Shown here: positions 3,267 to 24,399 of the stretch, one piece after another
How positions within the stretch are numbered: the first letter of the stretch is position 1
Layout of the letters: the number at the start of each line of letters is the position of its first letter
Source of the DNA: an archaeon
GTDB taxonomy: Archaea > Nanobdellota > Nanobdellia > Pacearchaeales > GW2011-AR1
DNA: 26,604 nt
NCBI GenBank assembly: GCA_043810775.1
Contig: JBDRNU010000022.1
Span: 1 to 26,604, forward strand
Reading direction: 5' to 3'
The notes under the pieces: model-generated
The model's input: only the letters and a program-made list of their open reading frames with translations
Told to the model about the DNA's origin: nothing
Database searches by the model: none
Position numbers and translations under genes: made by a program

Positions 3267-3749
3267 TCAAGTAACTGAAAGGGTGACATAAACTTCACTA
3301 TCTTCTGCAGCCCCTAATATATTCCTGATAACTGAATTTGTTGGTGTAGAAGATACTGGAAATCCTTTCCCTTCTTTTACAAAGTTGAATAAACCCTGGA
3401 AATCCTTTCTTTCATATATTTCAGACAAATATGCCAAACAGACACAATAATTATTAAATCTGGTAAGAGTTTGATTTAATTCGCTTATTTCTGGTGAGCT
3501 TTTCATATCAGAGAAAATAAGACCTCTTGACACAGGGCCTCCTGCTGAAGGGGTTGCTTGTTCTGTGCCTAGATAAAGCTCAAACTTATAAGGATAGTTT
3601 GTTTCTTGCGGATTAGCTCTCCTTTCAGCTTCTAATAGTGATTCTACAGCCTTAATCTTATCAGATGTGTATTTTAGAAATGCTTTTCTTTCATCTTCAG
3701 TCCTAATTAGGTGCTTTTCATTTGCTATGCTAACTAATTGGCTTTCCAT
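3267..3749 (-). CDS. Hypothetical protein, 160 aa
   Basis: ATG start, with TTTTATATAT about 25 nt upstream on the minus strand. No domain recognised. Confidence 0.65.
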   Translation of the reverse strand: MESQLVSIANEKHLIRTEDERKAFLKYTSDKIKAVESLLEAERRANPQETNYPYKFELYLGTEQATPSAGGPVSRGLIFSDMKSSPEISELNQTLTRFNNYCVCLAYLSEIYERKDFQGLFNFVKEGKGFPVSSTPTNSVIRNILGAAEDSEVYVTLSVT

Positions 3750-3825
3750 TTTGTAAATATCATATATAAAATTCGTATTTAAAGCTTTGCATTTTATTAC
3801 TACTTTATAATGTCAGAAAAATAAT

Positions 3826-3975
3826 TTACTTTTTTTCAAGTAGCTCGTAAGCAGTTACTAGCACTAGTTCATTAGTTCTTTGCAGAATTTTAAGATATTT
3901 TTGCCAGCCTTTAATTTTAGCTTCAACTAGCCTAGCATAAAGAAGGTTATTATTTTTTTGCTTAAATAATCCCAT
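3826..3975 (-). CDS. Possible small ORF, 49 aa (not in the track)
   Basis: Hand translation: MGLFKQKNNNLLYARLVEAKIKGWQKYLKILQRTNELVLVTAYELLEKK*. A CTTAAATATT box lies about 27 nt upstream on the minus strand. It fills an otherwise empty 360-nt gap. Confidence 0.35.
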   Translation of the reverse strand: MGLFKQKNNNLLYARLVEAKIKGWQKYLKILQRTNELVLVTAYELLEKK

Positions 3976-4080
3976 TGCTAAAGAATCTTGAATAGTAAAT
4001 ATTTAAGGTTTTTATTAAAATAAAATATATAATGACTTCTAATAATAAATATAAGCGTAAGAATTTTGAAGTAGTATTGG

Positions 4081-4096
4081 GAAAATTTATTTAAAG
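4081..4096 (+). promoter_or_regulatory. BRE/TATA-like promoter
   Basis: GAAAATTTATTTAAAG ends about 21 nt before the ATG at 4117. Confidence 0.4.
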
Positions 4097-4116
4097 GGGC
4101 TATTATTAGACATTTA

Positions 4117-4929
4117 ATGAAAAAAGAGGAAATTATTGCGTTAACTGTAGTAGTGATATTACTAATTGGTTTTGTATTGGGGTTTAAAAAAATTACAGGA
4201 CTTGTTATTGGTGAAGAAGTTAGAGGAATCCCTGAAGAAGAGCAAAAATGCATGCAAAGTTGTGTTGCTATTGGATGTAATTCTGGAGATGTAGATTGTA
4301 TGACTAAAAATGGGGATAAATGCATGGCTCAATGTAATGCTGGACCTCCTGAATCTGAGAGTGAAGATGAGGGTATAGGATGCATGAAGGATTGTATTGA
4401 TAAACTTTGTACTCAAGGACCTAGTTATGCTGAATGTAACAATAATAATCTTAAAAAATGTGAAGAAGAGTGTGATATGAAAGGAGACGCTCCTGATGAA
4501 AGTGAGATGGGTGCTGAACAATTATGCCTTACTAATTGTGTAGCTGAAATTGACCCAAGTATTATATGTGGGAATAGTGTTGAAGGAGAAACTGGAAATG
4601 AAGTTTGCCAGAGATGTGCACAAGAATGTGTGCATTTATATGAAGGTCCTTGTTTAAATGATGAACAAGCCAAGGAAAAACAAAAGGCGTGTGAAACTTG
4701 TACACATTGCTATGGTGAGCCTGTTATGGGGGATAGTGGGGAAGGGTGGGAGTGTATTGTTGATGTAAGCTGTGAAGATGCTTCTTCTGAATGGGGAGAT
4801 GACCCTGGAAGCGGACCTGGAATTGGACAAGAAGGATATGTGGCTCCTGATGAAAATAGTGAAGGAATAGTTGGAAGTATAATGGGAGGAATTAATGATT
4901 TTTTTTCTGGGCTTTTTGGTGGTGAATAG
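4117..4929 (+). CDS. Membrane-anchored, acidic, Cys-rich (24 Cys) surface or secreted protein
   Basis: N-terminal anchor IIALTVVVILLIGFVLGF. Three successive six-Cys modules built around CxxxC pairs, then a Gly-rich hydrophobic tail GSIMGGINDFFSGLFGGE. Confidence 0.75.
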   Translation: MKKEEIIALTVVVILLIGFVLGFKKITGLVIGEEVRGIPEEEQKCMQSCVAIGCNSGDVDCMTKNGDKCMAQCNAGPPESESEDEGIGCMKDCIDKLCTQGPSYAECNNNNLKKCEEECDMKGDAPDESEMGAEQLCLTNCVAEIDPSIICGNSVEGETGNEVCQRCAQECVHLYEGPCLNDEQAKEKQKACETCTHCYGEPVMGDSGEGWECIVDVSCEDASSEWGDDPGSGPGIGQEGYVAPDENSEGIVGSIMGGINDFFSGLFGGE

Positions 4930-6878: not shown

Positions 6879-7420
6879 ATTATACTGGCTTTGATTATCT
6901 TAACTTCTTCGATAGGCCTATCTGAAGAATCAGTTTCTACTTTTGCGATTGCATCTATTACATCCATGCCTTGAATTACTTTGCCAAATGCTGGATGCTT
7001 ATCATCAAGAAAATTATTGTTGACTAGGTTAATGAAAAACTGGCTTCCCCCTGTATTTGGACCTGCATTTGCCATTGAAATTGTGCCTCGATTATTTTTA
7101 TTTCCACCTTTATGGGTGAATTCGTCTTTTATAGTGTATCCTGGCCCACCCATTCCTGTTCCTTGAGGGTCGCCGCCCTGAATCATAAAACTGGCAATTA
7201 TTCTATGGAAAATTACCCCATCATAAAATCCCTGATTAACCAGTTTCTCAAAATTTCCAGCTGTAACTGGCATGTCATCATACAGTTCAATTACTACATC
7301 TCCCATACTGGTTTCAAGTTTTACTTTGGTAGATTGAGACATTTTACAATATACTCCTGAAATAACTAAAATTAGAGCTATTATAAATATTCCTAAAATA
7401 ATTTTTTTCTGTTTTTTCAT
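6875..7420 (-). CDS. Cyclophilin-type peptidyl-prolyl cis-trans isomerase with N-terminal membrane anchor
   Basis: Cyclophilin signatures FHRIIASFMIQGGDP and GTISMANAGPNTGGSQFFI. N-terminus KKIILGIFIIALILVISGVY is hydrophobic. ATGA overlap with the upstream topoisomerase gene. Confidence 0.9.
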   Translation of the reverse strand: MKKQKKIILGIFIIALILVISGVYCKMSQSTKVKLETSMGDVVIELYDDMPVTAGNFEKLVNQGFYDGVIFHRIIASFMIQGGDPQGTGMGGPGYTIKDEFTHKGGNKNNRGTISMANAGPNTGGSQFFINLVNNNFLDDKHPAFGKVIQGMDVIDAIAKVETDSSDRPIEEVKIIKASII

Positions 7421-14749: not shown

Positions 14750-14886
14750 AGCTCTCGCTGATTAAGGTAGATCATGACTAGAGCTCCGATTATAAACAGC
14801 CAGTCTACTAGATAAGTTAAAGCCAGAAACCCCAAGGCAATTAGGGAATATACTATTACTTTATAATTTATTTTTTTCTTTTTCAT
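14728..14886 (-). CDS. Possible small two-TM membrane protein, 52 aa (not in the track)
   Basis: Hand translation: MKKKKINYKVIVYSLIALGFLALTYLVDWLFIIGALVMIYLNQRELYFPTTR*. The ATG overlaps, as ATGA, the stop of an 8-codon relic MNWRKYKI*. Its 3' end overlaps the convergent U32 gene by 22 nt. Confidence 0.4.
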   Translation of the reverse strand: MKKKKINYKVIVYSLIALGFLALTYLVDWLFIIGALVMIYLNQRELYFPTTR

Positions 14887-14909
14887 ATTTTATATTTTCT
14901 CCAGTTCAT
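14885..14909. repeat. 25-nt exact direct repeat, copy 1
   Basis: ATATTTTATATTTTCTCCAGTTCAT is identical to 15578-15602. On the minus strand it encodes MNWRKYKI. Confidence 0.9.
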
Positions 14910-14937
14910 ACTTGAAGTTTTATTCTTTTCTGCATCT

Positions 14938-15483
14938 TTAATTAAAGAAAGTGTTAAGAATCTCTTTTGTAATTTCTAGAGATTTATCACAAAAATTCTT
15001 TAAATTTCTTGAAGAGCTGTTTTTAAAGTAAACATTTTCAACTATCTTATCTTTGTTTCTAACAGAACGCACTGCTGGAACAAAATCACCATCTCCTGAT
15101 ACTAAAATTGCAATATCAAAATTATTATCACAAGCATTCTCCACCATATCAACAGCCATATTTATGTCATCTTCTTTTATAATATAATAAAATTTATTTG
15201 TTCCGGTTATATTTCTTTTTAATAATTTACATAGGACAAGGTGAAAATTAGGTATTTGCTTTAATTTCTCAAAAAATTCTTTTTGACTTTTGTATTTTTT
15301 AGGATTACGCTCTATGTCAAGAAGGGCATTGTAGTAATAGATTGCAACAACTTTATTTTTACCAGCTAAAAATTGAGCAAATTTTTCAAAATTAAACTTC
15401 TTTAAGCTTTTATTCTGACCGTATAATTTCCTTAAACCAAAATAAAAATTATTTCCATCAATAAAAACAGCAACTCTTTTCAT
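14938..15483 (-). CDS. NYN/LabA-like domain protein (predicted RNase)
   Basis: N-terminal RVAVFIDGNNFYFGL and ILVSGDGDFVPAVRSVR match the NYN/LabA acidic motifs. Confidence 0.8.
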   Translation of the reverse strand: MKRVAVFIDGNNFYFGLRKLYGQNKSLKKFNFEKFAQFLAGKNKVVAIYYYNALLDIERNPKKYKSQKEFFEKLKQIPNFHLVLCKLLKRNITGTNKFYYIIKEDDINMAVDMVENACDNNFDIAILVSGDGDFVPAVRSVRNKDKIVENVYFKNSSSRNLKNFCDKSLEITKEILNTFFN

Positions 15484-15490
15484 ATGAAAT

Positions 15491-15519
15491 GCCCATCCCT
15501 TGCCGAAGCAAGGATGAGC
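15491..15519 (-). promoter_or_regulatory. 5'-proximal stem-loop with a UUCG tetraloop, upstream of the NYN gene
   Basis: The minus strand reads GCUCAUCCUUGC-UUCG-GCAAGGGAUGGGC: 6 bp closed by C(UUCG)G, extended by further pairs past a 1-nt bulge. It ends 7 nt before the ATG. Confidence 0.45.
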
Positions 15520-15575
15520 GTATATGATTATTTCAGGCAGTTGAAGTTTAAAAGTCTTTTGTTGTGTAAATTTTA

Positions 15576-16265
15576 CTATATTTTATATTTTCTCCAGTTC
15601 ATGCTTTTCCCCAATCCCTTCGCCACCCTGACTGCATCTTTAATCAAGTATCTTGGAAGATTTCTAAGTTCAGCCGGAGTAATGAATATACAGGGGATTT
15701 TATACTTTTTGTACAGCTTGTTTTTTTCAACTTTTTTTTTCCAGGATTTAGGATGCCCACCATAATACTCAATGAATACATTATAGCGGGGAAGGTAAAA
15801 GTCTGGGACGCATATCCAGGCATCAAGCTTCAATGCACTGGATTCATAGCTTGCCTTAATTTTCCTGTCATAAAGAAAATTAGCTATTTGCTGTTCGCCT
15901 TTACTCCTAACTTTGAACTTGAACTTAGTTTTTTGCTTAAGTTCATTGAAATTCCTGCCTCCTGACAGGAATTTTTTCCATGCTTCTGGATGTTCAGCAT
16001 AGTATTTTTTCATTTCTTGAGATTTCTGCTTTCTTACATTTGGATGGTCGCGCCACCATTGAGTCATTATTTTATCGAGCTTGGCCTTATGACTTGGAGA
16101 TAGGTGCTTGCCTTTAGTTGGACTAATTAGCCTCCCTTCTTTATAAGCTCGCTTTAAACCTTTAGAAATATTTTTCTTCATACTGGCTGGAAGCTTTTTC
16201 CCGTGCCAGTATCCTTGCTTTCCAAGCCAATAATATCCTCTACCTGTTTTTTTGTTTTCTGACAT
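15576..16265 (-). CDS. Homing-endonuclease-like protein: NUMOD3-type DNA-binding repeats plus a PD-(D/E)xK-fold nuclease domain
   Basis: Two NUMOD3-like motifs (HGKKLPASMKKNISKGLKRAY and KGKHLSPSHKAKLDKIM). The C-terminus SKGEQQIANFLYDRKIKASYE ... PDFYLPRYNVFIEYYGG resembles restriction-endonuclease-fold domains. Confidence 0.55.
   Translation of the reverse strand: MSENKKTGRGYYWLGKQGYWHGKKLPASMKKNISKGLKRAYKEGRLISPTKGKHLSPSHKAKLDKIMTQWWRDHPNVRKQKSQEMKKYYAEHPEAWKKFLSGGRNFNELKQKTKFKFKVRSKGEQQIANFLYDRKIKASYESSALKLDAWICVPDFYLPRYNVFIEYYGGHPKSWKKKVEKNKLYKKYKIPCIFITPAELRNLPRYLIKDAVRVAKGLGKSMNWRKYKI
15578..15602. repeat. 25-nt exact direct repeat, copy 2
   Basis: Identical to 14885-14909. Here it forms the last eight sense codons of the 229-aa nuclease gene. 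Confidence 0.9.
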
Positions 16266-16674
16266 TCTTTAACTTAAGTTTTTTAATTAGCCACAGGATT
16301 AAAACTACAATTAAGGATATAATTGCAATCAATACTATAATTAAAAATAAGAAAGGAAGATAATAAACCTTAAGATTCATGTTTCTTATTTCTTTACTCC
16401 AGTATTCTCTTATTGAATCGCATTGGTCATAGGTAATATTTAACCCTTCACAAGCTTGGTTCATTGTTGCTTCAGCATGACTTATTCCTAGCAAGGCAGT
16501 GCATTCTTCAATACTTCTATTGCCACATAGCTCTTTTTGCTCTTCAATATGCTGATTAAAACTTTCCATAGCACTGCAACACATTACATCTCTGGGCATT
16601 TCATAGGAGAAAGAGCTAACTAAAGGAATTACTGCCAGAAAAATAATGCAACTAATAATCGCCCCTATTTTCAT
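16240..16674 (-). CDS. Cys-rich protein with N-terminal signal/anchor and C-terminal TM anchor, 144 aa
   Basis: N-terminus MKIGAIISCIIFLAVIPLVSS, eight further Cys after the signal/anchor region, and a C-terminal TM YYLPFLFLIIVLIAIISLIVVLILWLI followed by a basic tail. Overlaps the downstream nuclease gene by 26 nt. Confidence 0.7.
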   Translation of the reverse strand: MKIGAIISCIIFLAVIPLVSSFSYEMPRDVMCCSAMESFNQHIEEQKELCGNRSIEECTALLGISHAEATMNQACEGLNITYDQCDSIREYWSKEIRNMNLKVYYLPFLFLIIVLIAIISLIVVLILWLIKKLKLKNVRKQKNR

Positions 16675-16788
16675 ATTCTAGATTAGAAATCTGGGAATTT
16701 AAGCTTTATGGCTGAGTGGGGAATTATTAAGTAAATCCCAACTAAACACTATAATAATATTTAAAAAGAGTGCAAGGAAAGAATATTT

Positions 16789-17772
16789 ATGGCAAATAAG
16801 GGAATTTCCAGAAGAGATTTCTTAAAATTAGCAGCAGTAACAGGACTAGCTGTTCCAAGTTCAGGATGTGGTTTAAAGGAGTTTATTTTTCCTAAAAAAC
16901 CTGCATATATTCCTAATCCAGAATTTGCAAAGCTTTTACCTACCTTAAAAGAGATAATACTAGAAGAAGGAGAAGAATATTTTTCATTTCCAGAAGATTT
17001 TCCTGATAGGATAGATTCAATTGAGGAAATTAATCAGACTTTATATCCTGAGGTTCAAAATTCAATTGATATTTTTCTTGAAAAAAAGAACACTTATCCA
17101 GAACTGCATAAGCTTTCTGCAATTAATATTAAATCATTGCTTTATGCAGCTGCTGGTGTTGGATTTTTTAAGACTGCAAGCTGGGGCCAGAAATTCTTTG
17201 GAAAAACTAAATTTGACAGATTTCAAGCAAGTGCTGTTAAATATCTTCTCACTAGTATGTTTGCTCTGCATACACTAGCAGCAGCGTTTGGTTCAAAAGG
17301 ACAATACTCTCATATTACTAAAGACATAAGTGTAGATTTGGGAAATTCTAGAAGCTCAACAAAAAAGTTTGTGGGGCATGAAGCTTTTCATTATTTATAT
17401 TTTAAAAGTGTTAAAAAAAGAGAGCCTATTTGGGTAGTTGAAGGTTTTGCTGATGCAGCTATTTTGAGTGCTTTAGATAATAATGGACTTTTAGAAAAAA
17501 CTAAAAATGAAGTTAGGAGGGAGTCATTAGAAGATATGATTGCTATTTATAATTCAGTAAGAAATAAAGAAGATGCTTCTACTGAACTTCCAAAAGAGTT
17601 TCAGGAATTTTCTTCTAAATTTATGAGTGGAGTTGGGAATTACTCTTTTGGCTATAGTTTTTTTAGAATACGGGAAAGGCAATTAGGAAAAGGCATTTAT
17701 GCATCTATTTTAGAAGAAGGGAGCTTGAAACCTGTTGAGCCCTTGACTAGTTTAAATATTAAGAACAAATAA
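16789..17772 (+). CDS. Tat-signal lipoprotein with a peptidase-MA-like (HExxH ... WxxEGxA) domain
   Basis: Twin-arginine motif SRRDFLKLAAVTGLAV followed by a lipobox-like SSGC. GHEAFHYLYF ... IWVVEGFADAA fits the gluzincin pattern. Confidence 0.65.
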   Translation: MANKGISRRDFLKLAAVTGLAVPSSGCGLKEFIFPKKPAYIPNPEFAKLLPTLKEIILEEGEEYFSFPEDFPDRIDSIEEINQTLYPEVQNSIDIFLEKKNTYPELHKLSAINIKSLLYAAAGVGFFKTASWGQKFFGKTKFDRFQASAVKYLLTSMFALHTLAAAFGSKGQYSHITKDISVDLGNSRSSTKKFVGHEAFHYLYFKSVKKREPIWVVEGFADAAILSALDNNGLLEKTKNEVRRESLEDMIAIYNSVRNKEDASTELPKEFQEFSSKFMSGVGNYSFGYSFFRIRERQLGKGIYASILEEGSLKPVEPLTSLNIKNK

Positions 17773-17790
17773 TCTTAATTTAATTTTTTA
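17761..17790. repeat. 30-nt exact direct repeat, copy 1
   Basis: AAGAACAAATAATCTTAATTTAATTTTTTA is identical to 21755-21784. It covers K-N-K-stop of the gene at 16789..17772 plus 18 nt of spacer. Confidence 0.9.
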
Positions 17791-17928
17791 TTATCGAATA
17801 ACTTTTTTTACTTTTCCACACCTTAGACACTTGAATTTCTGGGCAAATTTCCCATTGCCAGCATTTTCCGGACCCATAAACTTGGTCCAGTGATGAAAAC
17901 CAAATAGACATTTAATATTCTTTGCCAT
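17791..17928 (-). CDS. Small zinc-ribbon-like protein, 45 aa (not in the track)
   Basis: Hand translation: MAKNIKCLFGFHHWTKFMGPENAGNGKFAQKFKCLRCGKVKKVIR*. The pattern C-x4-H-H ... C-x2-C resembles small phage-type proteins (DUF1660-like), recalled from memory. Confidence 0.45.
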   Translation of the reverse strand: MAKNIKCLFGFHHWTKFMGPENAGNGKFAQKFKCLRCGKVKKVIR

Positions 17929-17965
17929 AGTTTAAACTTGATAAGAGTATTTATTTAATTTTCTA

Positions 17966-18724
17966 TTAGAAATCATAACTAACACCAGCTAAAGCCCTAA
18001 TTGAATTAATTTCTCCAAAACTAGCCTCCATGCTTTGATAACCTATTGATAAATTGACAGTGACATCGTCTGCTAAATTATATTCAATTCCTAAACTACC
18101 ACTAATGCCAATTGGATTATCACTTTCACTAGTTACACTTTCAAATTCCCCATATCTATCATGACCTGATTCAACTTCAGCATCAATCATTAGAGGCAAG
18201 CCAATTTTCCCTACTAATCCAATACTTTCAGAACTTATTCTTCCACCAACATATGGCTCTAACGTAACTAGGCCTGGCACAAACTGAGTATAGACAAAAG
18301 AGGCATTATCTCCAGGACGCCTATCAGATGATTGTTTTTTTACATCATACATACCTTCCCTATATCCATCTGCGAAAAAACCAGAATTAATAATAGCATC
18401 AGCTCCAAATAAAAACCTTAGAACATCAGTGCCATATGAACCTTCAACACCTAATCTTAATCCAATATCTTCTCCACTATTAAGATTAGTATCAGTAGTT
18501 CCTGATAAAAAACCAGCATCATCAGGATGTACATCAACTGTCTGTACATCATCATTTATCTTAAGATTATAAAAATTAAAGTCTAAACCAAAGTTTCCCC
18601 TAGTCTCAAAATATTTATCTCGGCTTTTTGAATCTGAATCACTTGATGCAAATGCTGGAACTGGAATAAGAGGCAGTAAAGTAGTGAGTAGAATAGCTGC
18701 AATTTTTGAAAATCTTTTAGCCAT
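17966..18724 (-). CDS. Secreted protein resembling a bacterial outer-membrane beta-barrel
   Basis: Signal peptide ending PAFA-SS. Repeated amphipathic beta-strand-like segments (GLRLGVEGSYG, GISGSLGIEYNL, VTVNLSIGYQSM). C-terminus ALAGVSYDF ends in an aromatic residue, like an OMP beta-signal. Confidence 0.55.
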   Translation of the reverse strand: MAKRFSKIAAILLTTLLPLIPVPAFASSDSDSKSRDKYFETRGNFGLDFNFYNLKINDDVQTVDVHPDDAGFLSGTTDTNLNSGEDIGLRLGVEGSYGTDVLRFLFGADAIINSGFFADGYREGMYDVKKQSSDRRPGDNASFVYTQFVPGLVTLEPYVGGRISSESIGLVGKIGLPLMIDAEVESGHDRYGEFESVTSESDNPIGISGSLGIEYNLADDVTVNLSIGYQSMEASFGEINSIRALAGVSYDF

Positions 18725-18841
18725 ATTATATCAGAGGTATTGGGATATTTAAATTTATATTCATTTTAAAATATATATTTACTTTCCCTGCCACCCTACT
18801 AATATCAAAACTTATATAAACATTAATTTTAGAGGATTTTT

Positions 18842-19318
18842 ATGAATAAAATAAAATTATCTAAAAAATTAGTTATAGCAGTACAAAATACTAATAATAA
18901 GTATGATAATTTTCAAGGAATAGTCCTATTCGGCAGTTTTGCAAACCCAGAAGTTAAAAAACCAAGAGATGTAGATTTTATTCCAGTCCTAAATAAATAT
19001 GATGGTTGTTGGCAGTTTTCAACAGATGATGAGGGAGATTATGATGAAGCATATCATGGTTTTAAAGAAATGGAAGAATTCTTTGGAACCCACTTCCCAG
19101 AGTTTGCTGAAGAGTATGATGTGTTATTTAAAACCCGTTGGAAAAGAAAAGCATTATTCCATGTTGAATCACTGGTGGCTATTGATAATCTTCCTGAGTT
19201 ACAATCATCGTTAGTCCACTACAGAACAAACCCTGAAAATTTTATTGGAACAAAAAAAGCTGCTCAAATAATATCTGAGTTTTATAAAAGTTTAAGAAAT
19301 CCTCTAGTCCCTTGTTAA
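18842..19318 (+). CDS. Nucleotidyltransferase-fold (Pol-beta/MNT-like) protein, 158 aa
   Basis: GIVLFGSFANPEVKKPRDVDFIPV matches the G-S-x(n)-D-x-D motif of minimal nucleotidyltransferases. Confidence 0.6.
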   Translation: MNKIKLSKKLVIAVQNTNNKYDNFQGIVLFGSFANPEVKKPRDVDFIPVLNKYDGCWQFSTDDEGDYDEAYHGFKEMEEFFGTHFPEFAEEYDVLFKTRWKRKALFHVESLVAIDNLPELQSSLVHYRTNPENFIGTKKAAQIISEFYKSLRNPLVPC

Positions 19319-19347
19319 TTAAAATATCAGGCTTTCCACACCTGACT

Positions 19348-20964
19348 TTATTTTGACTTTATGATTTCTACCTTATCTCCAGGAGATAGGTTAAAATCTT
19401 CCCATTTTTCTTCAGAAATAACTTCCCCATTAACTCTTACCAATGGTATTCCTTCAATTTTATATCTTTGAAGCATTGATTCAATTGATGTATATATACA
19501 AATAAATGGCTCTCCTTCCCTTATTATAACTTCTGCAGATTTTTCATTCATTAGAGTTTGGGAAAGCTCCAATAATTTCCTGATTTTTTCACTGCCCTCT
19601 TCTCTAATAAGAGTCTTATTTTCAATTAAAGTATTTAAATCATTAATTACAGTAAAAACTTGATTTAAAACAGGATCATAATCAGGATGGTCTTCTAGTA
19701 TAACTTGATAAGTATTCTTTGACCACTGCCTAAATCCTTTATTTCGGTCATCTTGGGTTGCTTCCTTTTTTCCAGTTAAAATGAGATTAATAACTTCTGC
19801 AACATAGTAATCAAACTCACTTACTTTTTTAGGATCAAGATATTTACTTTCTGCCATTGCTTGCATTCTGTCATAAGGATGAACTGCACCCTGGATTTTG
19901 AGTTCAACTTCTTCATCTGTTAGTCCTACTAGTGATTCTAGACTTGGTTCTTTTCCTTCTTTTCTGGCTTTTCTTGCAGCTGCTTTTTCAAATTTTTCCT
20001 GAAATCTGGAATCTACTTCTTTATCTTTTTCTTTTTGAGCTGCCTGTTCTTTTAGTTTTTCTTCAATTGAAATGCTTTTATAACATTGATATAAGGTAGA
20101 ATGATAACTTCCTAATTCTCTTAGTCCCCGCTCTATAATTTCATGATTTGCTGTATGCTCTTCAATATGCTTTCTTAATAAAGAAACATATAGCCTAGCT
20201 GCTTTCTCACTCGAATTTAAAGTTGTTTTAATATTATTTCTTCTAAGAACTCGGTTAACTCCTTTAAACTGTCCGTCTAATTCTGGATCAAAAATAATAT
20301 TAACTGCTTTATATAACATTCCCAAGGATTCAGCCACTTTATCTCTTTTTTTACCTACTTCAATAATTGCTGTTACATTTTCTTCATTAGTTAGAAGTTT
20401 ATGGGCATAGGAAATACATTTCACATTTTCCCAGTTGCTTCCTGGATAGCTAGTTGGAGTGTCATATCCTTTTGGGCCTGGTAAAGCTAGTCTCTGGCTT
20501 GTTGGAGCTGCTGCTATTTCTTTTAATCTTCCAGCTGTTTCTCCCAATCCTCCAAGAAGTAATTTAAGCCTATATAGAGGATCTTGACTAAGTTCAGTTA
20601 CCACTAAATCTTTGATTCTGCTATTTTTATCAACATCATTAAGCCCATGAAGAATTAATTCCAGATTATCAGGGTGTCTTCTTACATAATCTGACATTAA
20701 AACAGCAACTCTTGGAACTATATCTTTTTGAGTTCCTAATTCCATCATCACTTTCCAATAAATATTATAAATACCTCTTAAATGAGTATGTAACTTGGTT
20801 ATCTCTTTTTTTTCGCAGATAAATTCTATCCCCTTATGTAGAAATTCAACATACTCTGAATGCTTAAGGAACTTATTTACATTTGGGCTTTTTTTCCCTG
20901 TTCTAGGCCAAATATTATAAACTGCTTCAAAAATCTTGCCAGTGTTTAGGTATTGCTCTCCCAT
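19348..20964 (-). CDS. Large orphan protein, 538 aa, with a C-terminal ThiS/MoaD-like beta-grasp domain lacking a GG terminus
   Basis: The last roughly 65 aa (EVIIREGEPFICIYTSIESMLQRYKIEGIPLVRVNGEVISEEKWEDFNLSPGDKVEIIKSK) reproduce the ThiS spacing N-x8-W-x7-GD. The helical, Lys/Glu-rich N-terminal 470 aa are unrecognised. Confidence 0.7.
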   Translation of the reverse strand: MGEQYLNTGKIFEAVYNIWPRTGKKSPNVNKFLKHSEYVEFLHKGIEFICEKKEITKLHTHLRGIYNIYWKVMMELGTQKDIVPRVAVLMSDYVRRHPDNLELILHGLNDVDKNSRIKDLVVTELSQDPLYRLKLLLGGLGETAGRLKEIAAAPTSQRLALPGPKGYDTPTSYPGSNWENVKCISYAHKLLTNEENVTAIIEVGKKRDKVAESLGMLYKAVNIIFDPELDGQFKGVNRVLRRNNIKTTLNSSEKAARLYVSLLRKHIEEHTANHEIIERGLRELGSYHSTLYQCYKSISIEEKLKEQAAQKEKDKEVDSRFQEKFEKAAARKARKEGKEPSLESLVGLTDEEVELKIQGAVHPYDRMQAMAESKYLDPKKVSEFDYYVAEVINLILTGKKEATQDDRNKGFRQWSKNTYQVILEDHPDYDPVLNQVFTVINDLNTLIENKTLIREEGSEKIRKLLELSQTLMNEKSAEVIIREGEPFICIYTSIESMLQRYKIEGIPLVRVNGEVISEEKWEDFNLSPGDKVEIIKSK

Positions 20965-21091
20965 CTAAAATTTGCAATAAAGGATAATTTTTAAATAAAT
21001 CTATACTGGAAAATAGACTTTTCCTCCACCTGCCACTCTCTTTAGCTGATAACAATAAATTTTATATATACTAAAATTACAGATAATTACA

Positions 21092-21766
21092 ATGAAAGTA
21101 GGGAAATATGAAATTGATGAAGATAGAGTAGCTATATTAAACTCAAGTATGGGTCCGAGTTCAGAGAGTGCTTTTTTAACTTTATTTGAAAAATATATTG
21201 AAGACCGTGAAAAACCATTAATGATTGTTCTTAATACTACTGGAGGTTTGGCATTATCGCCAATGAATCTAGTAAATTTATGCCATTATGGGCATCCTAA
21301 ACCTAATTTAATAACATATGCTTTTGAAAAGTGCATGTCTGCAGGAGTAATAGCTATGCAGTTTGGCACTAGGAGAATTTCTGACCCAGACACAAAATTT
21401 ATGTTTCACCCGATTCGCAATATGCTTACAGGTGAAATCGCTAAACCAGACTCTTTAACATGGAGAATTGATAAATCAATTTACAAATCACTTGCAGACA
21501 GATGCGGAGTAAGTGTTGAACAATTGCGGGATGATTTTCCCAATGATGTATATCTTAGTGCTCAAGAAGCTATGATTTATGGAAAAAAAGGACTAATTGA
21601 CGAAATTGTGCAGGCACCTCCTGAATTAAGAGACAAAGTTAAGAATGGACTAAGAAGTGATATAAGCATGGAGGAGCTTGAAAAGTTAATTAATAGAATA
21701 AGTGAGATTACACTGCAATTAGCTGAAGAGCATATGAAAAGAGTTCGTTCTGAAAAGAACAAATAA
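21092..21766 (+). CDS. ClpP-family (S14-like) serine protease homologue with a coiled-coil-like C-terminal tail
   Basis: Aligns by eye with E. coli ClpP: MIVLNTTGG vs LYINSPGG, EKCMSAGV vs QAASMGA (Ser), KFMFHPI vs RVMIHQP (His), VYLSAQEAMIYG..IDEI vs RFLSAPEAVEYGLVDSI. Confidence 0.7.
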   Translation: MKVGKYEIDEDRVAILNSSMGPSSESAFLTLFEKYIEDREKPLMIVLNTTGGLALSPMNLVNLCHYGHPKPNLITYAFEKCMSAGVIAMQFGTRRISDPDTKFMFHPIRNMLTGEIAKPDSLTWRIDKSIYKSLADRCGVSVEQLRDDFPNDVYLSAQEAMIYGKKGLIDEIVQAPPELRDKVKNGLRSDISMEELEKLINRISEITLQLAEEHMKRVRSEKNK

Positions 21767-21784
21767 TCTTAATTTAATTTTTTA
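21755..21784. repeat. 30-nt exact direct repeat, copy 2
   Basis: Identical to 17761-17790. It covers K-N-K-stop of the ClpP-like gene plus the spacer and 3' end of the convergent exonuclease gene. Confidence 0.9.
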
Positions 21785-22370
21785 ATGAGTTTAATACTTG
21801 CTCAAATTCTTTGGCTTGAATAATAGCATCTTCTAGGGCGTTATGTTTTAGATCGGAACCTCTTAGGCCAAGCTGAGCTATGTGTGCATTAATATCGCGA
21901 ACAGCTCCACGATACATAGAATTAATATCTTCCCCACTATGCCCAAAAGGATTCTGACCTTGATAAAAATTATCAAAATACCAGGCAGTGAACATTCCGT
22001 CAAATTTTATTGGAGCTGCTGCTTCAACTGGCTTAAATCCTTTAGTATTAGATGAAACCCATTCTGCGTAATCTTTCATTACTTTTTCAGGAGATTCGCC
22101 TTTTTCTGCCAGAATATCAAGAATTTTATGAGGATTGAAACTTGGACTTTTAGGATTAAATTCATCAAGATGCCTTAAATCTGACAAGCATCTTAATCCT
22201 ATAGAACTTACTTTCATTGCCTCAAGAATAAAATTTCTAGAAATTGGCTTAATCTCACGATAAAACTGAATTGAGGTATCTCCTACAATACAAGCTCCTA
22301 AAGAAAGCATTGAGTATTTTCCCGGAGTTCGACCTGAAGATTCAATATCAACTGATACGTATTTTTTCAT
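21774..22370 (-). CDS. DEDDh 3'-5' exonuclease (DnaQ/RNase T-like)
   Basis: Exo I motif VSVDIESSG and Exo III motif HNALEDAIIQA (H-x4-D), in a 198-aa protein. Confidence 0.75.
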   Translation of the reverse strand: MKKYVSVDIESSGRTPGKYSMLSLGACIVGDTSIQFYREIKPISRNFILEAMKVSSIGLRCLSDLRHLDEFNPKSPSFNPHKILDILAEKGESPEKVMKDYAEWVSSNTKGFKPVEAAAPIKFDGMFTAWYFDNFYQGQNPFGHSGEDINSMYRGAVRDINAHIAQLGLRGSDLKHNALEDAIIQAKEFEQVLNSLKN

Positions 22371-22794
22371 AATATTTTTTTGGATTTAGTTGAGTTTCAA
22401 GTGAATTAATAGTATTCCTAAATTTATCTGATGAAGCTAGCCTTCCTAAAGCAAAAGCTGTTGCTGAACCTGCCCAAAAAGCAGCTATGTCTTTTAAATC
22501 GTAGGTGCCTGGCCAAATATGGGCTTTTTGCAAGAGCTCTACAGCTGTCCAGTAGATTGATATAAGAAATGCACCTTTTAGATGAGATTTTATATCATCT
22601 TGGTCTTCATCTCCATTAAACCAGGTAGTTAAGGCAAGAGATGTACCAAAGTCTCCAAACTGCCCAGAAACAAAGGAATAAGGAATTAAATGTGCAACCT
22701 GAAGAGCTTGTGCAGTTAATCCAGTTGCAGCTATTCCAATGCCTACTTTATTAGCTGTTTTATTCATGAAATCATAAAATGATTGTTTATTCAT
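22348..22794 (-). CDS. Hypothetical membrane protein, 148 aa
   Basis: Several hydrophobic segments. Its 3' end overlaps the exonuclease start by 23 nt, implying co-transcription. Confidence 0.6.
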   Translation of the reverse strand: MNKQSFYDFMNKTANKVGIGIAATGLTAQALQVAHLIPYSFVSGQFGDFGTSLALTTWFNGDEDQDDIKSHLKGAFLISIYWTAVELLQKAHIWPGTYDLKDIAAFWAGSATAFALGRLASSDKFRNTINSLETQLNPKKYYEKIRIS

Positions 22795-22882
22795 ATTCGT
22801 GCATTTAAAACCAGCTTTTTAGACTTTTCTATGCACCCCAAGCTTTAAATAGGGCTATTTATATTAAAGTGAGGAGAAATAA

Positions 22883-22996
22883 ATGAACGCTAGGAATGAA
22901 TTGGAAGGTATTGATTCTGTAATATGTCAGAAATGTTTATGGAGATTCACATTTCTGAGCATAGTCAAAAACTCTAAGTTTTTGATATTTTTATAA
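22883..22996 (+). CDS. Possible small ORF, 37 aa, with CxxC (not in the track)
   Basis: Hand translation: MNARNELEGIDSVICQKCLWRFTFLSIVKNSKFLIFL*. CTTTAAATAG lies about 30 nt upstream and GAGGAG about 6 nt upstream. It may instead be a structured non-coding leader. Confidence 0.25.
   Translation: MNARNELEGIDSVICQKCLWRFTFLSIVKNSKFLIFL
22965..22985. repeat. Second copy of the 9-bp/3-nt-loop hairpin seen at 1-21
   Basis: TCAAAAACT-CTA-AGTTTTTGA versus TCAAAAATC-AAA-GATTTTTGA at 1-21. The two stem differences are compensated on the opposite arm. Confidence 0.5.
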
Positions 22997-23013
22997 ATTG
23001 CAAGGAGGAAAAA

Positions 23014-23876: not shown

Positions 23877-24251
23877 TTATTCAATCTTCAGTGCTTTCAT
23901 AATTTTATCAAGCTTTACATTGATTTTGTCAAGCTGTTCTGAACTAGCTGAACCTCTTGAACTATCACTTTTACCAAAACACTCGTTACAGTAGATTGGC
24001 TTGCCTTTAGTTGGCTTAAATGGAACTTCACATTTTTTACCACACTCATCACATATAACTTTGTGCATTTCAGGTGGCCCTCTTCTTGAACTTCTGAAGT
24101 CTCTGTCTCTCCCACCGAATCCTCTATTGCTTCCTCTATCTCGAAAACTTCTATCACTAGAATCAGAGTCTCTATCTCTAAAGCTTCTTCCTCCTGATCT
24201 TCCGCTAAATCTGCCTCCCCCGCCCCTGTTATCTTTTCTATAGCCTGCCAT
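23877..24251 (-). CDS. CxxC-x17-CxxC zinc-ribbon protein with an RGG/RS-like repetitive N-terminal region (the track version starts at a TTG at 24341)
   Basis: CDECGKKCEVPFKPTKGKPIYCNEC has exactly 17 residues between the CxxC pairs. The ATG at 24251 has TTTTATATA about 30 nt upstream on the minus strand. N-terminus: GGGGRFSGRSGGRSFRDRDSDSSDRSFRDRGSNRGFGGRDRDF. Confidence 0.75.
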   Translation of the reverse strand: MAGYRKDNRGGGGRFSGRSGGRSFRDRDSDSSDRSFRDRGSNRGFGGRDRDFRSSRRGPPEMHKVICDECGKKCEVPFKPTKGKPIYCNECFGKSDSSRGSASSEQLDKINVKLDKIMKALKIE

Positions 24252-24399
24252 GTTTGTATATTTATGAGGTAAATGTCTGTATATAAAAGTATGTTCTTGA
24301 TGAAAAATTACAGTAAAACTAGAGATTTTAGTGATTTCCAATAACCTTAATTATTTCTGCTTTGAAGAATATTTTAACTGAAACATATCCTAGCAAGAC

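Follow-up and report, generated by a model that had tools for sequence, protein, structure and literature searches.

Duplicated end of a nuclease gene on either side of an NYN ribonuclease cassette in a Pacearchaeales genome

The DNA described here, referred to throughout as the window, is a contig of 26,604 nucleotides (nt; JBDRNU010000022.1 of assembly GCA_043810775.1) from an archaeon of the Pacearchaeales, and is contig C22 of a genome (G000) that takes the form of a metagenome bin of 995 kb in 26 contigs, with 80% completeness and a GC content of 33%, whose genes have homologs labelled Pacearchaeota, Nanoarchaeota or "archaeon". One locus within it comprises the genes for a nuclease of 229 amino acids (aa), for an NYN ribonuclease of 181 aa (NYN181) and for a membrane protein of 52 aa (tm52), all of which are carried by the minus strand (Table 1). 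The end of the nuclease gene is found a second time between the other two genes, and it is this duplication, and the way in which it may have come about, that is considered below.

Table 1. The nuclease, NYN and tm52 locus, with positions in the window
Feature	Position	Strand	Remarks
tm52, conserved single-copy small membrane protein, 52 aa	14728..14886	-	two hydrophobic segments; convergent with U32 peptidase gene
Nuclease 3' stub, about 59 nt, 19 codons and stop	14884..14942	-	reads IKDAEKNKTSSMNWRKYKI and stop; type-2 tail, matching the G001 syntenic nuclease and the C12 paralog
R', left 25-nt copy, end of the dead nuclease-tail stub	14885..14909	-	GGAG at -16 of tm52; stop and start overlap as ATGA
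NYN/LabA-like ribonuclease gene, 181 aa	14938..15483	-	PF01936, E=6e-27; GC 22-29%, flanks 35-40%
Leader hairpin at the 5' end of the NYN mRNA, capped by C(UUCG)G	15491..15519	-	conserved with compensatory changes upstream of NYN homologs
Archaeal promoter of the NYN unit, like the transcription factor B recognition element (BRE) and TATA box	15546..15561	-	CAAAAGACTTTTAAAC; 33 nt from TATA start to hairpin start
Nuclease, 229 aa, N-terminal NUMOD3-like KKIS repeats and C-terminal PD-(D/E)xK-type core	15576..16265	-	E124, PDF154-156, E166 and K178/K181 invariant
R, right 25-nt copy, last 8 codons of the intact nuclease gene	15578..15602	-	TAG stop completed by base 15576
G+C-rich 29-nt middle of the live tail, VRVAKGLGKS	15603..15631	-	no relation to the stub middle; similar to the end of the nuclease fragment on G001:C6
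Live-gene copy of the second direct repeat, 13 nt, codons IKDA	15632..15644	-	partner at 14930-14942, spacing 702 nt

The nuclease tail and its displaced stub

A 25-nt sequence, ATATTTTATATTTTCTCCAGTTCAT on the forward strand, has exactly two matches in the window, 693 nt apart (R being the right copy and R' the left), and is restricted to these two sites among all 26 contigs of G000. In none of 100 dinucleotide-preserving shuffles of the window were two copies of the 25-mer obtained, and the match can be extended to 28/29 nt. An original prediction made from the sequence alone had started from this repeat, which is thus confirmed, as are its reading on the minus strand, ATGAACTGGAGAAAATATAAAATAT, with the translation MNWRKYKI, and the overlap of the TGA of the left copy with the start of tm52. 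The right copy had been taken for the true C-terminus of the nuclease, and the relatives of the protein bear this out, with a paralog that ends in FSWRRFRI and an ortholog, in a second genome of the same genus (G001), that reads SMKWQKYKI in a shifted frame.

The left copy had been regarded as an orphan relic of eight codons; it is indeed a relic, but one that is in frame over 19 codons and that includes a second block of exact identity, the 13-nt ATTAAAGATGCAG of the minus strand, a length of match reached by 0/5000 shuffles. Instead of a clean duplication of 25 nt, as had been supposed, the duplicated segment is a mosaic of about 59 nt, in which 13 exact nt are followed by unrelated middles, of 20 A+T-rich nt in the stub and 29 G+C-rich nt in the live gene, and then by 25-29 exact nt. 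The stop codon of the NYN gene (TAA, 14938-14940) sits within the first codons of the stub, the NYN gene abutting the LIK codons of the old tail. That the NYN gene was inserted between the nuclease and tm52 is a part of the prediction that we retain, whereas its placing at the exact junction of the two does not hold, as it is within the stub that the NYN gene ends.

Over 49 nt the stub can be aligned with the end of the syntenic G001 nuclease (p<0.002), and the same version of the tail is present in the paralog on contig C12 of G000, which ends in LIKDAEKNKSKNFSWRRFRI and a stop. The body of the live gene has an identity of 0.76-0.87 to the G001 nuclease right up to the 13-nt block, whereas beyond this block the identity of its tail is only 0.33-0.44. 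Given that the stub resembles the syntenic tail of G001 and the live middle does not, the stub is probably the original tail of the locus, and the live tail, judged by these alignments, appears as a mosaic.

No dyad symmetry was seen in R when its sequence was inspected. Matches to R in 301 genomes of the order were at chance level only, and its 20-nt core gave 31 matches in a metagenome collection of 241 million records, all of them unrelated, one being the end of a cysteinyl-tRNA synthetase (CysRS) gene; as R is in addition unique to the locus in G000, a dispersed repeat can be ruled out. It is also ruled out that R is a conserved upstream signal of tm52, as the tm52 homologs in eight other genomes have unrelated DNA upstream.

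Homologs of tm52 are found as single copies in 14/24 genomes of the family, with upstream DNA that is unrelated outside the genus. In G000 the codons for W-R of the stub supply the GGAG that lies at -16 of the tm52 start, and in G001 the corresponding gene, tm51, keeps TGGAG at -15 together with TAAAATATGA upstream. TATA-like hexamers have a sharp maximum at -31 to -26 of the start codons of G000, which indicates that transcription is mostly leaderless, and a minor peak of GGAG at -16 to -9 probably marks operon-internal genes. The sequence at the end of the C12 paralog is TGGAGGAGATTTAGGATATGA, with an ATGA overlap on a membrane open reading frame (ORF) of 39 aa. From these arrangements we infer that in this genus the tail of the nuclease doubles as the translation-initiation region of the gene that follows, and the stub would have been kept after the insertion because it supplies the translation-start signals of tm52. 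It had been proposed that the small membrane ORF once followed the nuclease tail directly, and the alignment of the stub with the G001 tail, the retention of TGGAG and TAAAATATGA before tm51 and the ATGA coupling of the C12 paralog all speak for this.

The NYN unit, its other loci and the nuclease family

The match of NYN181 to PF01936 covers residues 3-170 with 95.4 bits (cut-off 24.2), the motifs FIDGNNF and SGDGDF being present, and the protein also matches PADLOC HEC-09 (5.6e-27), a candidate that did not protect against the phages with which it was tested (bioRxiv 10.1101/2024.01.29.577857). The spacer of 92 nt between the nuclease and NYN genes contains the leader hairpin. The same order of a BRE/TATA element, some 25-30 nt and a hairpin of 10-12 bp at the very 5' end of the transcript, often with a U-run, is found upstream of NYN homologs at at least 24 loci (L016-L027 and L078-L097) in many genera and in unrelated gene contexts. 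These hairpins have folding energies between -12 and -20 kcal/mol (z-scores between -2 and -6), and in an alignment fitted to a covariance model, which is a bias toward pairing, 86% of cells are paired compared with 65% in shuffles; the covariation score of 0.53, against 0.18, was reached by 0/500 shuffles, and pairing falls to 30-55% once the partners are slid. A comparison with Rfam 15 gave no meaningful score, and the idea of a known RNA family was dropped.

The NYN homologs of G035:C43 and G012 have no relics of a nuclease tail beside them, so that the NYN cassette is not intrinsically tied to the nuclease. The gene, its promoter and its hairpin form a self-contained unit, and the view that NYN and its hairpin leader constitute a cassette is upheld by the recurrence of the same promoter and hairpin in unrelated contexts; a search for further NYN copies within G000 yielded none. 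A 19-nt inverted repeat (89% complementary) is also present, which pairs the NYN start and hairpin foot (15477-15495) with the interior of tm144 (16593-16611), 1.1 kb apart, and may have arisen by chance.

Direct repeats flank NYN cassettes at other loci also. When a flanking repeat is defined as exact words of at least 14 nt, 4/25 of the other NYN loci have one, compared with 5/591 control ORFs of similar size in G000 (Fisher p=2e-4). At G035:C35 (L129, 2560-3333) a tRNA gene with an intron (Rfam tRNA, 50 bits) has its final 16 nt repeated 3 nt after the NYN stop, the repeated end being followed by a second promoter-like copy. The repeat at G017:C4 (L022, 1369-2074), where the NYN gene has an in-frame stop, is intergenic and 14-21 nt long, with a geometry of -126/+32 compared with -120/+31 in G000. 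A different part of a gene is duplicated at G027:C4 (L130, 2113-3230), where a 5' stub of a secreted-protein gene, consisting of the signal peptide and some 25 codons, lies upstream and the intact gene downstream, the two agreeing exactly over 38 nt and nearly exactly over about 80 nt; a 27-nt repeat of the same kind is found at G006:C41 (L122, 198-1153). The NYN cassette of G037 abuts a tRNA. A 13-nt flanking word at G035:C43 was rejected as chance, being coding in both neighbours and of different geometry. Both the sequence and the length of the repeat differ from one NYN locus to another (14, 16, 25, 27 and 38 nt or more), and neither terminal inverted repeats nor a common end motif were found among the five repeat-flanked cassettes.

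The 229-aa protein is a restriction-fold nuclease. Within its family the KKIS repeats are variable and the E...PDF...E...K core is invariant; the AlphaFold2 model has a predicted local distance difference test score (pLDDT) of 83, and profile matches were obtained to PADLOC PDC-S69 (2.7e-15), to a PD-DEXK model (1e-10) and to the PHROG "Holliday junction resolvase" (1.8e-6), with a weak match to T7 endonuclease I (E=0.02) and none in Pfam. Foldseek returned Bax1 and I-Bth0305I with probabilities of 0.9-0.98 but E>0.01, the match to I-Bth0305I alone having a probability of 0.89 and E=0.07, and the protein may be a homing endonuclease. No viral relatives of either the nuclease or the NYN protein were found in IMG/VR, and a viral origin was dropped on that account.

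The nuclease family is patchy and multi-copy, occurring in 9/151 genomes with up to 4-6 matches in one genome, and isolated 5' fragments were not seen in the same survey. The C12 paralog (L011, G000:C12 1300-2120) has 234 aa and is 57-63% identical; its start overlaps a TrmB-like regulator gene as ATGA, and the 39-aa membrane ORF at its end (MKTNWKKVFVIIV at its start) is unannotated. Contig C6 of G001 carries a 133-aa 3' fragment of a nuclease, and G032:C7 (L074) has a full-length homolog (3317-4207) and, 2.8 kb downstream on the same strand, a decayed 3' stub (about 6983-7273) that corresponds to the last 70 or so codons through the stop (74% nt identity) and lies just upstream of xseA, with HEPN/nucleotidyltransferase-like and AbrB-like genes as cargo in between. 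A direct repeat of 21 nt (19/21) has one copy in the NUMOD3-like part of the nuclease gene (16106-16126) and the other at positions 23999-24019 of the window, in an ORF (23877-24341) for a 154-aa protein with a CxxC-x17-CxxC domain (TIGR04272, 1e-16), and may represent a shared DNA-binding motif or a trace of recombination.

The same locus in the sister genome

In contig C20 of G001 the order of genes is U32, an extra HD gene, tm51, a 113-aa gene, NYN, HD, DinB-like, isochorismatase, YdeI and nuclease. The NYN protein is 91% identical at the amino acid level and the promoter and hairpin are arranged identically. Four traces of R can be recognised: R1 in the nuclease tail (19/25, frame-shifted in an A-run), R2 before the isochorismatase gene (22/25 and ATGA-coupled), R3 (AACTGGAGAG-TAAATATAG) directly before the NYN promoter and R4, a weak remnant, before tm51. 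These remnants stand at the borders of gene blocks and are relics of the coding tail, and the position of R3 means that nuclease tail and NYN promoter are neighbours in both genomes.

Synonymous divergence (dS) between G000 and G001 is 0.60 for NYN, 1.30 for U32 and >2 for tm52 and the nuclease (flanks 1.3-2.3). Orthologous copies of R differ at 3-6/25 positions and by indels, whereas the two copies in G000 are identical at 25/25, which excludes one old insertion followed by drift; going by these sequences, exact identity within G000 would seem to require a recent event or gene conversion. With NYN already at the site in G001, a single ancestral insertion needs later gene conversion, or else there was a second, independent insertion. 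The simple single insertion that had been envisaged is therefore not sustained, given a NYN gene in place beside a decayed R in G001, a NYN dS of 0.6 and the perfect repeat in G000.

The G001 nuclease ortholog (L028, G001:C20 10868-10920) ends early, in KQKV and a stop, by a difference of 1 nt in an A-run, and SMKWQKYKI and its stop run on in the next frame, overlapping the start of the YdeI-like gene as ATGA. The shift may be genuine, or it may be a homopolymer error of the assembly. It was also considered whether the C-termini of the 194-aa (YdeI/OmdA) and 185-aa (HD) proteins of G001 might be fused relics of nuclease tails with a breakpoint at LIK. This was rejected; the OmdA profile spans the former protein to residue 188/194 and the HD homolog of G006 ends in LLIKNMKQYF and a stop, so that both tails are native and there is no recurrent breakpoint.

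Origin of the duplication and likeness to known systems

On balance, and with considerable reserve, we favour the reading that the two copies of the repeat are the ends of a duplicated nuclease tail that brackets an inserted NYN cassette, and that they arose by recombinational insertion-duplication. Looped-out or circular DNA with a fragment of a nuclease tail, the promoter, the hairpin and NYN would form the donor, which would cross over once with the chromosomal tail in the manner of Campbell, so that one flank would have the complete gene and the opposite flank a stub. The exact blocks of 13 nt and 25-29 nt might then be stretches in which the partners were identical, or which were later homogenised by gene conversion, and the unrelated middles of 29 and 20 nt would reflect tails from different alleles or paralogs. 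The original tail would remain attached to tm52 and provide it with a Shine-Dalgarno-like GGAG and an ATGA context. The anatomy of the locus, the source of the stub, the autonomy of the NYN unit and the presence of flanking repeats at other NYN loci can be read from the sequence data, and a single crossover, a circular intermediate and the recency of the event are what we infer from them. It is the combination of an intact gene with a stub, a duplicated gene end, a variable length and mosaic copies that argues for insertion-duplication and not for a target duplication of the transposase type.

Several observations weigh against this reading. In G001 the locus already contains NYN, with a decayed R upstream (the AACTGGAGAG-TAAATATAG copy), and has in addition the extra 113-aa gene and the weak remnant before tm51, and no more than two genomes of the genus were available. 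No outgroup was found, the contigs of the next-closest U32 peptidases (69-71% identity) being without synteny, nor was an empty site, a donor locus or a circular form; a scan of genome contigs with the nuclease as query likewise produced nothing. The repeats of G027 and G006 could stem from tandem paralogous genes. By the standards of bacteria, exact blocks of 13 and 25-29 nt are among the shortest that homologous recombination normally uses, although DPANN archaea may differ. The original prediction had suggested looking for relatives in which the nuclease is followed directly by the small membrane ORF without NYN, of which the contig scans revealed none, and had held that an NYN gene in this position without flanking repeats would tell against it; in G001 NYN is in place, as in that case, yet its repeats, decayed as they are, can still be traced.

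In the main rival explanation, R (25-29 nt) could be the core of an attachment (att) site, the NYN cassette being an integrase-less, cis-mobilisable element that depends on a tyrosine recombinase acting in trans and bears a copy of the 3' end of its target, as elements that target tRNA genes do. This is conceivable, if on the whole unlikely. Exact direct repeats that include the 3' end of a gene, as would be expected of att borders, are present both here (25/25) and in G035, where the cassette lies at the 3' end of a tRNA gene and the 16-nt end is duplicated; the cassette of G037 adjoins a tRNA as well, and G000 encodes two tyrosine recombinases elsewhere (PF00589, contigs C6 and C26). However, there is no recombinase in or beside any of the cassettes examined, nothing ties the two recombinases of G000 to R, and one of them is presumably the housekeeping XerA. 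Besides the absence of a cognate integrase from the cassette, R is absent elsewhere in G000 and at chance level in the 301 genomes of the order. The repeat varies in sequence and length with the locus, in one case a 5' part is duplicated, and the cassette ends share no motif, all of which sits poorly with a fixed att core. It is improbable, in our estimation, that the stub is instead the remnant of a second full copy of the nuclease that once separated NYN from tm52 and was later deleted, in which case the repeat would be conserved paralogous sequence and the nuclease a selfish, homing-endonuclease-like gene that leaves 3' stubs. The patchy, multi-copy distribution of the family (9/151 genomes) is in keeping with such a history, as are the full gene, cargo and 3' stub of about 70 codons in G032, the 3' fragment on G001:C6 and the lack of isolated 5' fragments, but the tails of paralogs differ at 6-9/25 positions, so that 25/25 still needs a recent event, and, since the live body is orthologous to that of G001 as far as the 13-nt block, a single gene whose tail was swapped fits better.

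The prediction in its literal form held that one precise insertion duplicated exactly 25 nt and that the same mechanism produced a 30-nt exact pair (17761-17790 and 21755-21784) some 2 kb away. An exact repeat does bracket NYN, and the 30-nt pair, which takes in the stop with the 3 codons before it and 18 T-rich intergenic nt after it, does cover the ends of two genes, for a 327-aa protein with a twin-arginine (TAT) signal and a ClpP-like protein of 224 aa, which are unrelated and share no further homology. Against this stand the length of about 59 nt with its unrelated middle, the NYN stop inside the stub and the presence of NYN at the G001 site with decayed repeats; moreover the 30-nt pair has neither sequence nor anatomy in common with R, and its interior is unmatched in G001. 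As the part of the window that holds it (16300-23000) gave no match to G001 DNA, the pair could not be polarised. We regard this model as very improbable, and it would be harder still to credit chance similarity or an assembly chimera. The DNA is AT-rich and of low complexity and the bin is 80% complete, but none of the 100 shuffles reproduced the repeat and its 20-nt core gave only the 31 unrelated metagenome matches. Contig ends in G000 share overlaps of 141 nt, which points to assembly with k=141, and with words of that size a 25-nt repeat cannot cause collapse. No second assembly of the locus is on record by exact look-up of NYN181; both outer junctions of the locus are corroborated by G001.

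The biology of mobile elements in DPANN archaea is poorly mapped, and known routes of movement are lacking for most of their accessory genes. A tentative and rather speculative extension of the insertion-duplication reading is that units of hairpin RNA and NYN are integrase-less mobile cassettes of these archaea, spread by insertion-duplication at gene ends and retained as addictive or defensive pairs of RNA and RNase. If this were so, their targets would include the 3' ends of tRNA genes, the tail of a selfish PD-(D/E)xK nuclease and the 5' ends of secreted-protein genes, and such cassettes would move among related genomes and perhaps be spread beyond DPANN. The nuclease tail, with its Shine-Dalgarno and ATGA signal, would be a reusable landing pad, behind which blocks of cargo pile up with relics of the tail between them, as in G001. 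The locus displays base by base the anatomy of a one-gene cassette within the end of another gene, with both neighbours spared, and the displaced tail would owe its survival to the translation signals that it provides for the next gene. Since the signature of intact gene and stub is met with also at a tRNA, an intergenic site and a secreted-protein gene, movement at gene ends becomes a testable claim, and short exact repeats of terminal codons might serve in annotation as a rule for recognising cassette borders. Should the pattern fail, what remains is an ordinary insertion scar. A single scar is indeed ordinary, but its recurrence at NYN-hairpin cassettes and the relics at the block borders of G001 make a systematic survey worthwhile.

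Of the known systems with which the locus can be compared, transposons are characterised by a transposase gene, and NYN is the sole ORF between the repeats; no inverted repeat was found at the cassette ends, and in place of a fixed short duplication there are lengths of 14 to at least 38 nt, with an additional 13-nt block 20/29 nt away. As regards integrons, R has no dyad of the attC type and no tyrosine recombinase is adjacent. In common with type III toxin-antitoxin modules (ToxIN, CptIN and TenpIN), the NYN unit consists of a promoter, a small structured RNA, often a U-run, and a gene of an endoribonuclease family, and it is likewise small, mobile and compositionally distinct. It differs in that its RNA is a single hairpin without the tandem repeats that define these modules, and in that NYN181 is NYN/LabA-like and not of the ToxN/AbiQ fold.

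Like the integrase-less, att-flanked islands known as cis-mobilisable elements (CIMEs), and like integrative elements that target tRNA genes and restore the 3' end of their target, the cassette has direct repeats in which the target's 3' end is contained, and the target gene is intact. Unlike them, it is only about 0.65 kb long, has one gene and no integrase nearby, its repeat is split into two blocks around an unrelated middle, and the targets vary among loci. The free-standing homing endonuclease genes of T4-like phages (seg/mob) mobilise flanking DNA (PMC2790892, PMC2988022). The 229-aa nuclease is similar to these in having a nuclease core and NUMOD3-like repeats, in being patchy and multi-copy and in lying beside variable cargo; it is dissimilar in that it is archaeal, chromosomal and without a Pfam model, and in that its nearest structural matches are weak and the search of IMG/VR gave no viral relatives.

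Close parallels lie with Campbell-type integration, for which a signature of insertion-duplication is established genetics. No circular intermediate, donor locus or plasmid backbone was seen at the G000 locus, and in this it departs from that model. As in Campbell-type integration, however, the insert is flanked by direct duplications, and in both G000 and G027 the intact gene is on the side of the fragment that carries the end and the stub is opposite; the duplication can be of any length, is mosaic if donor and recipient differ, and can equally involve a 5' end, which is the piece that is duplicated in G027.

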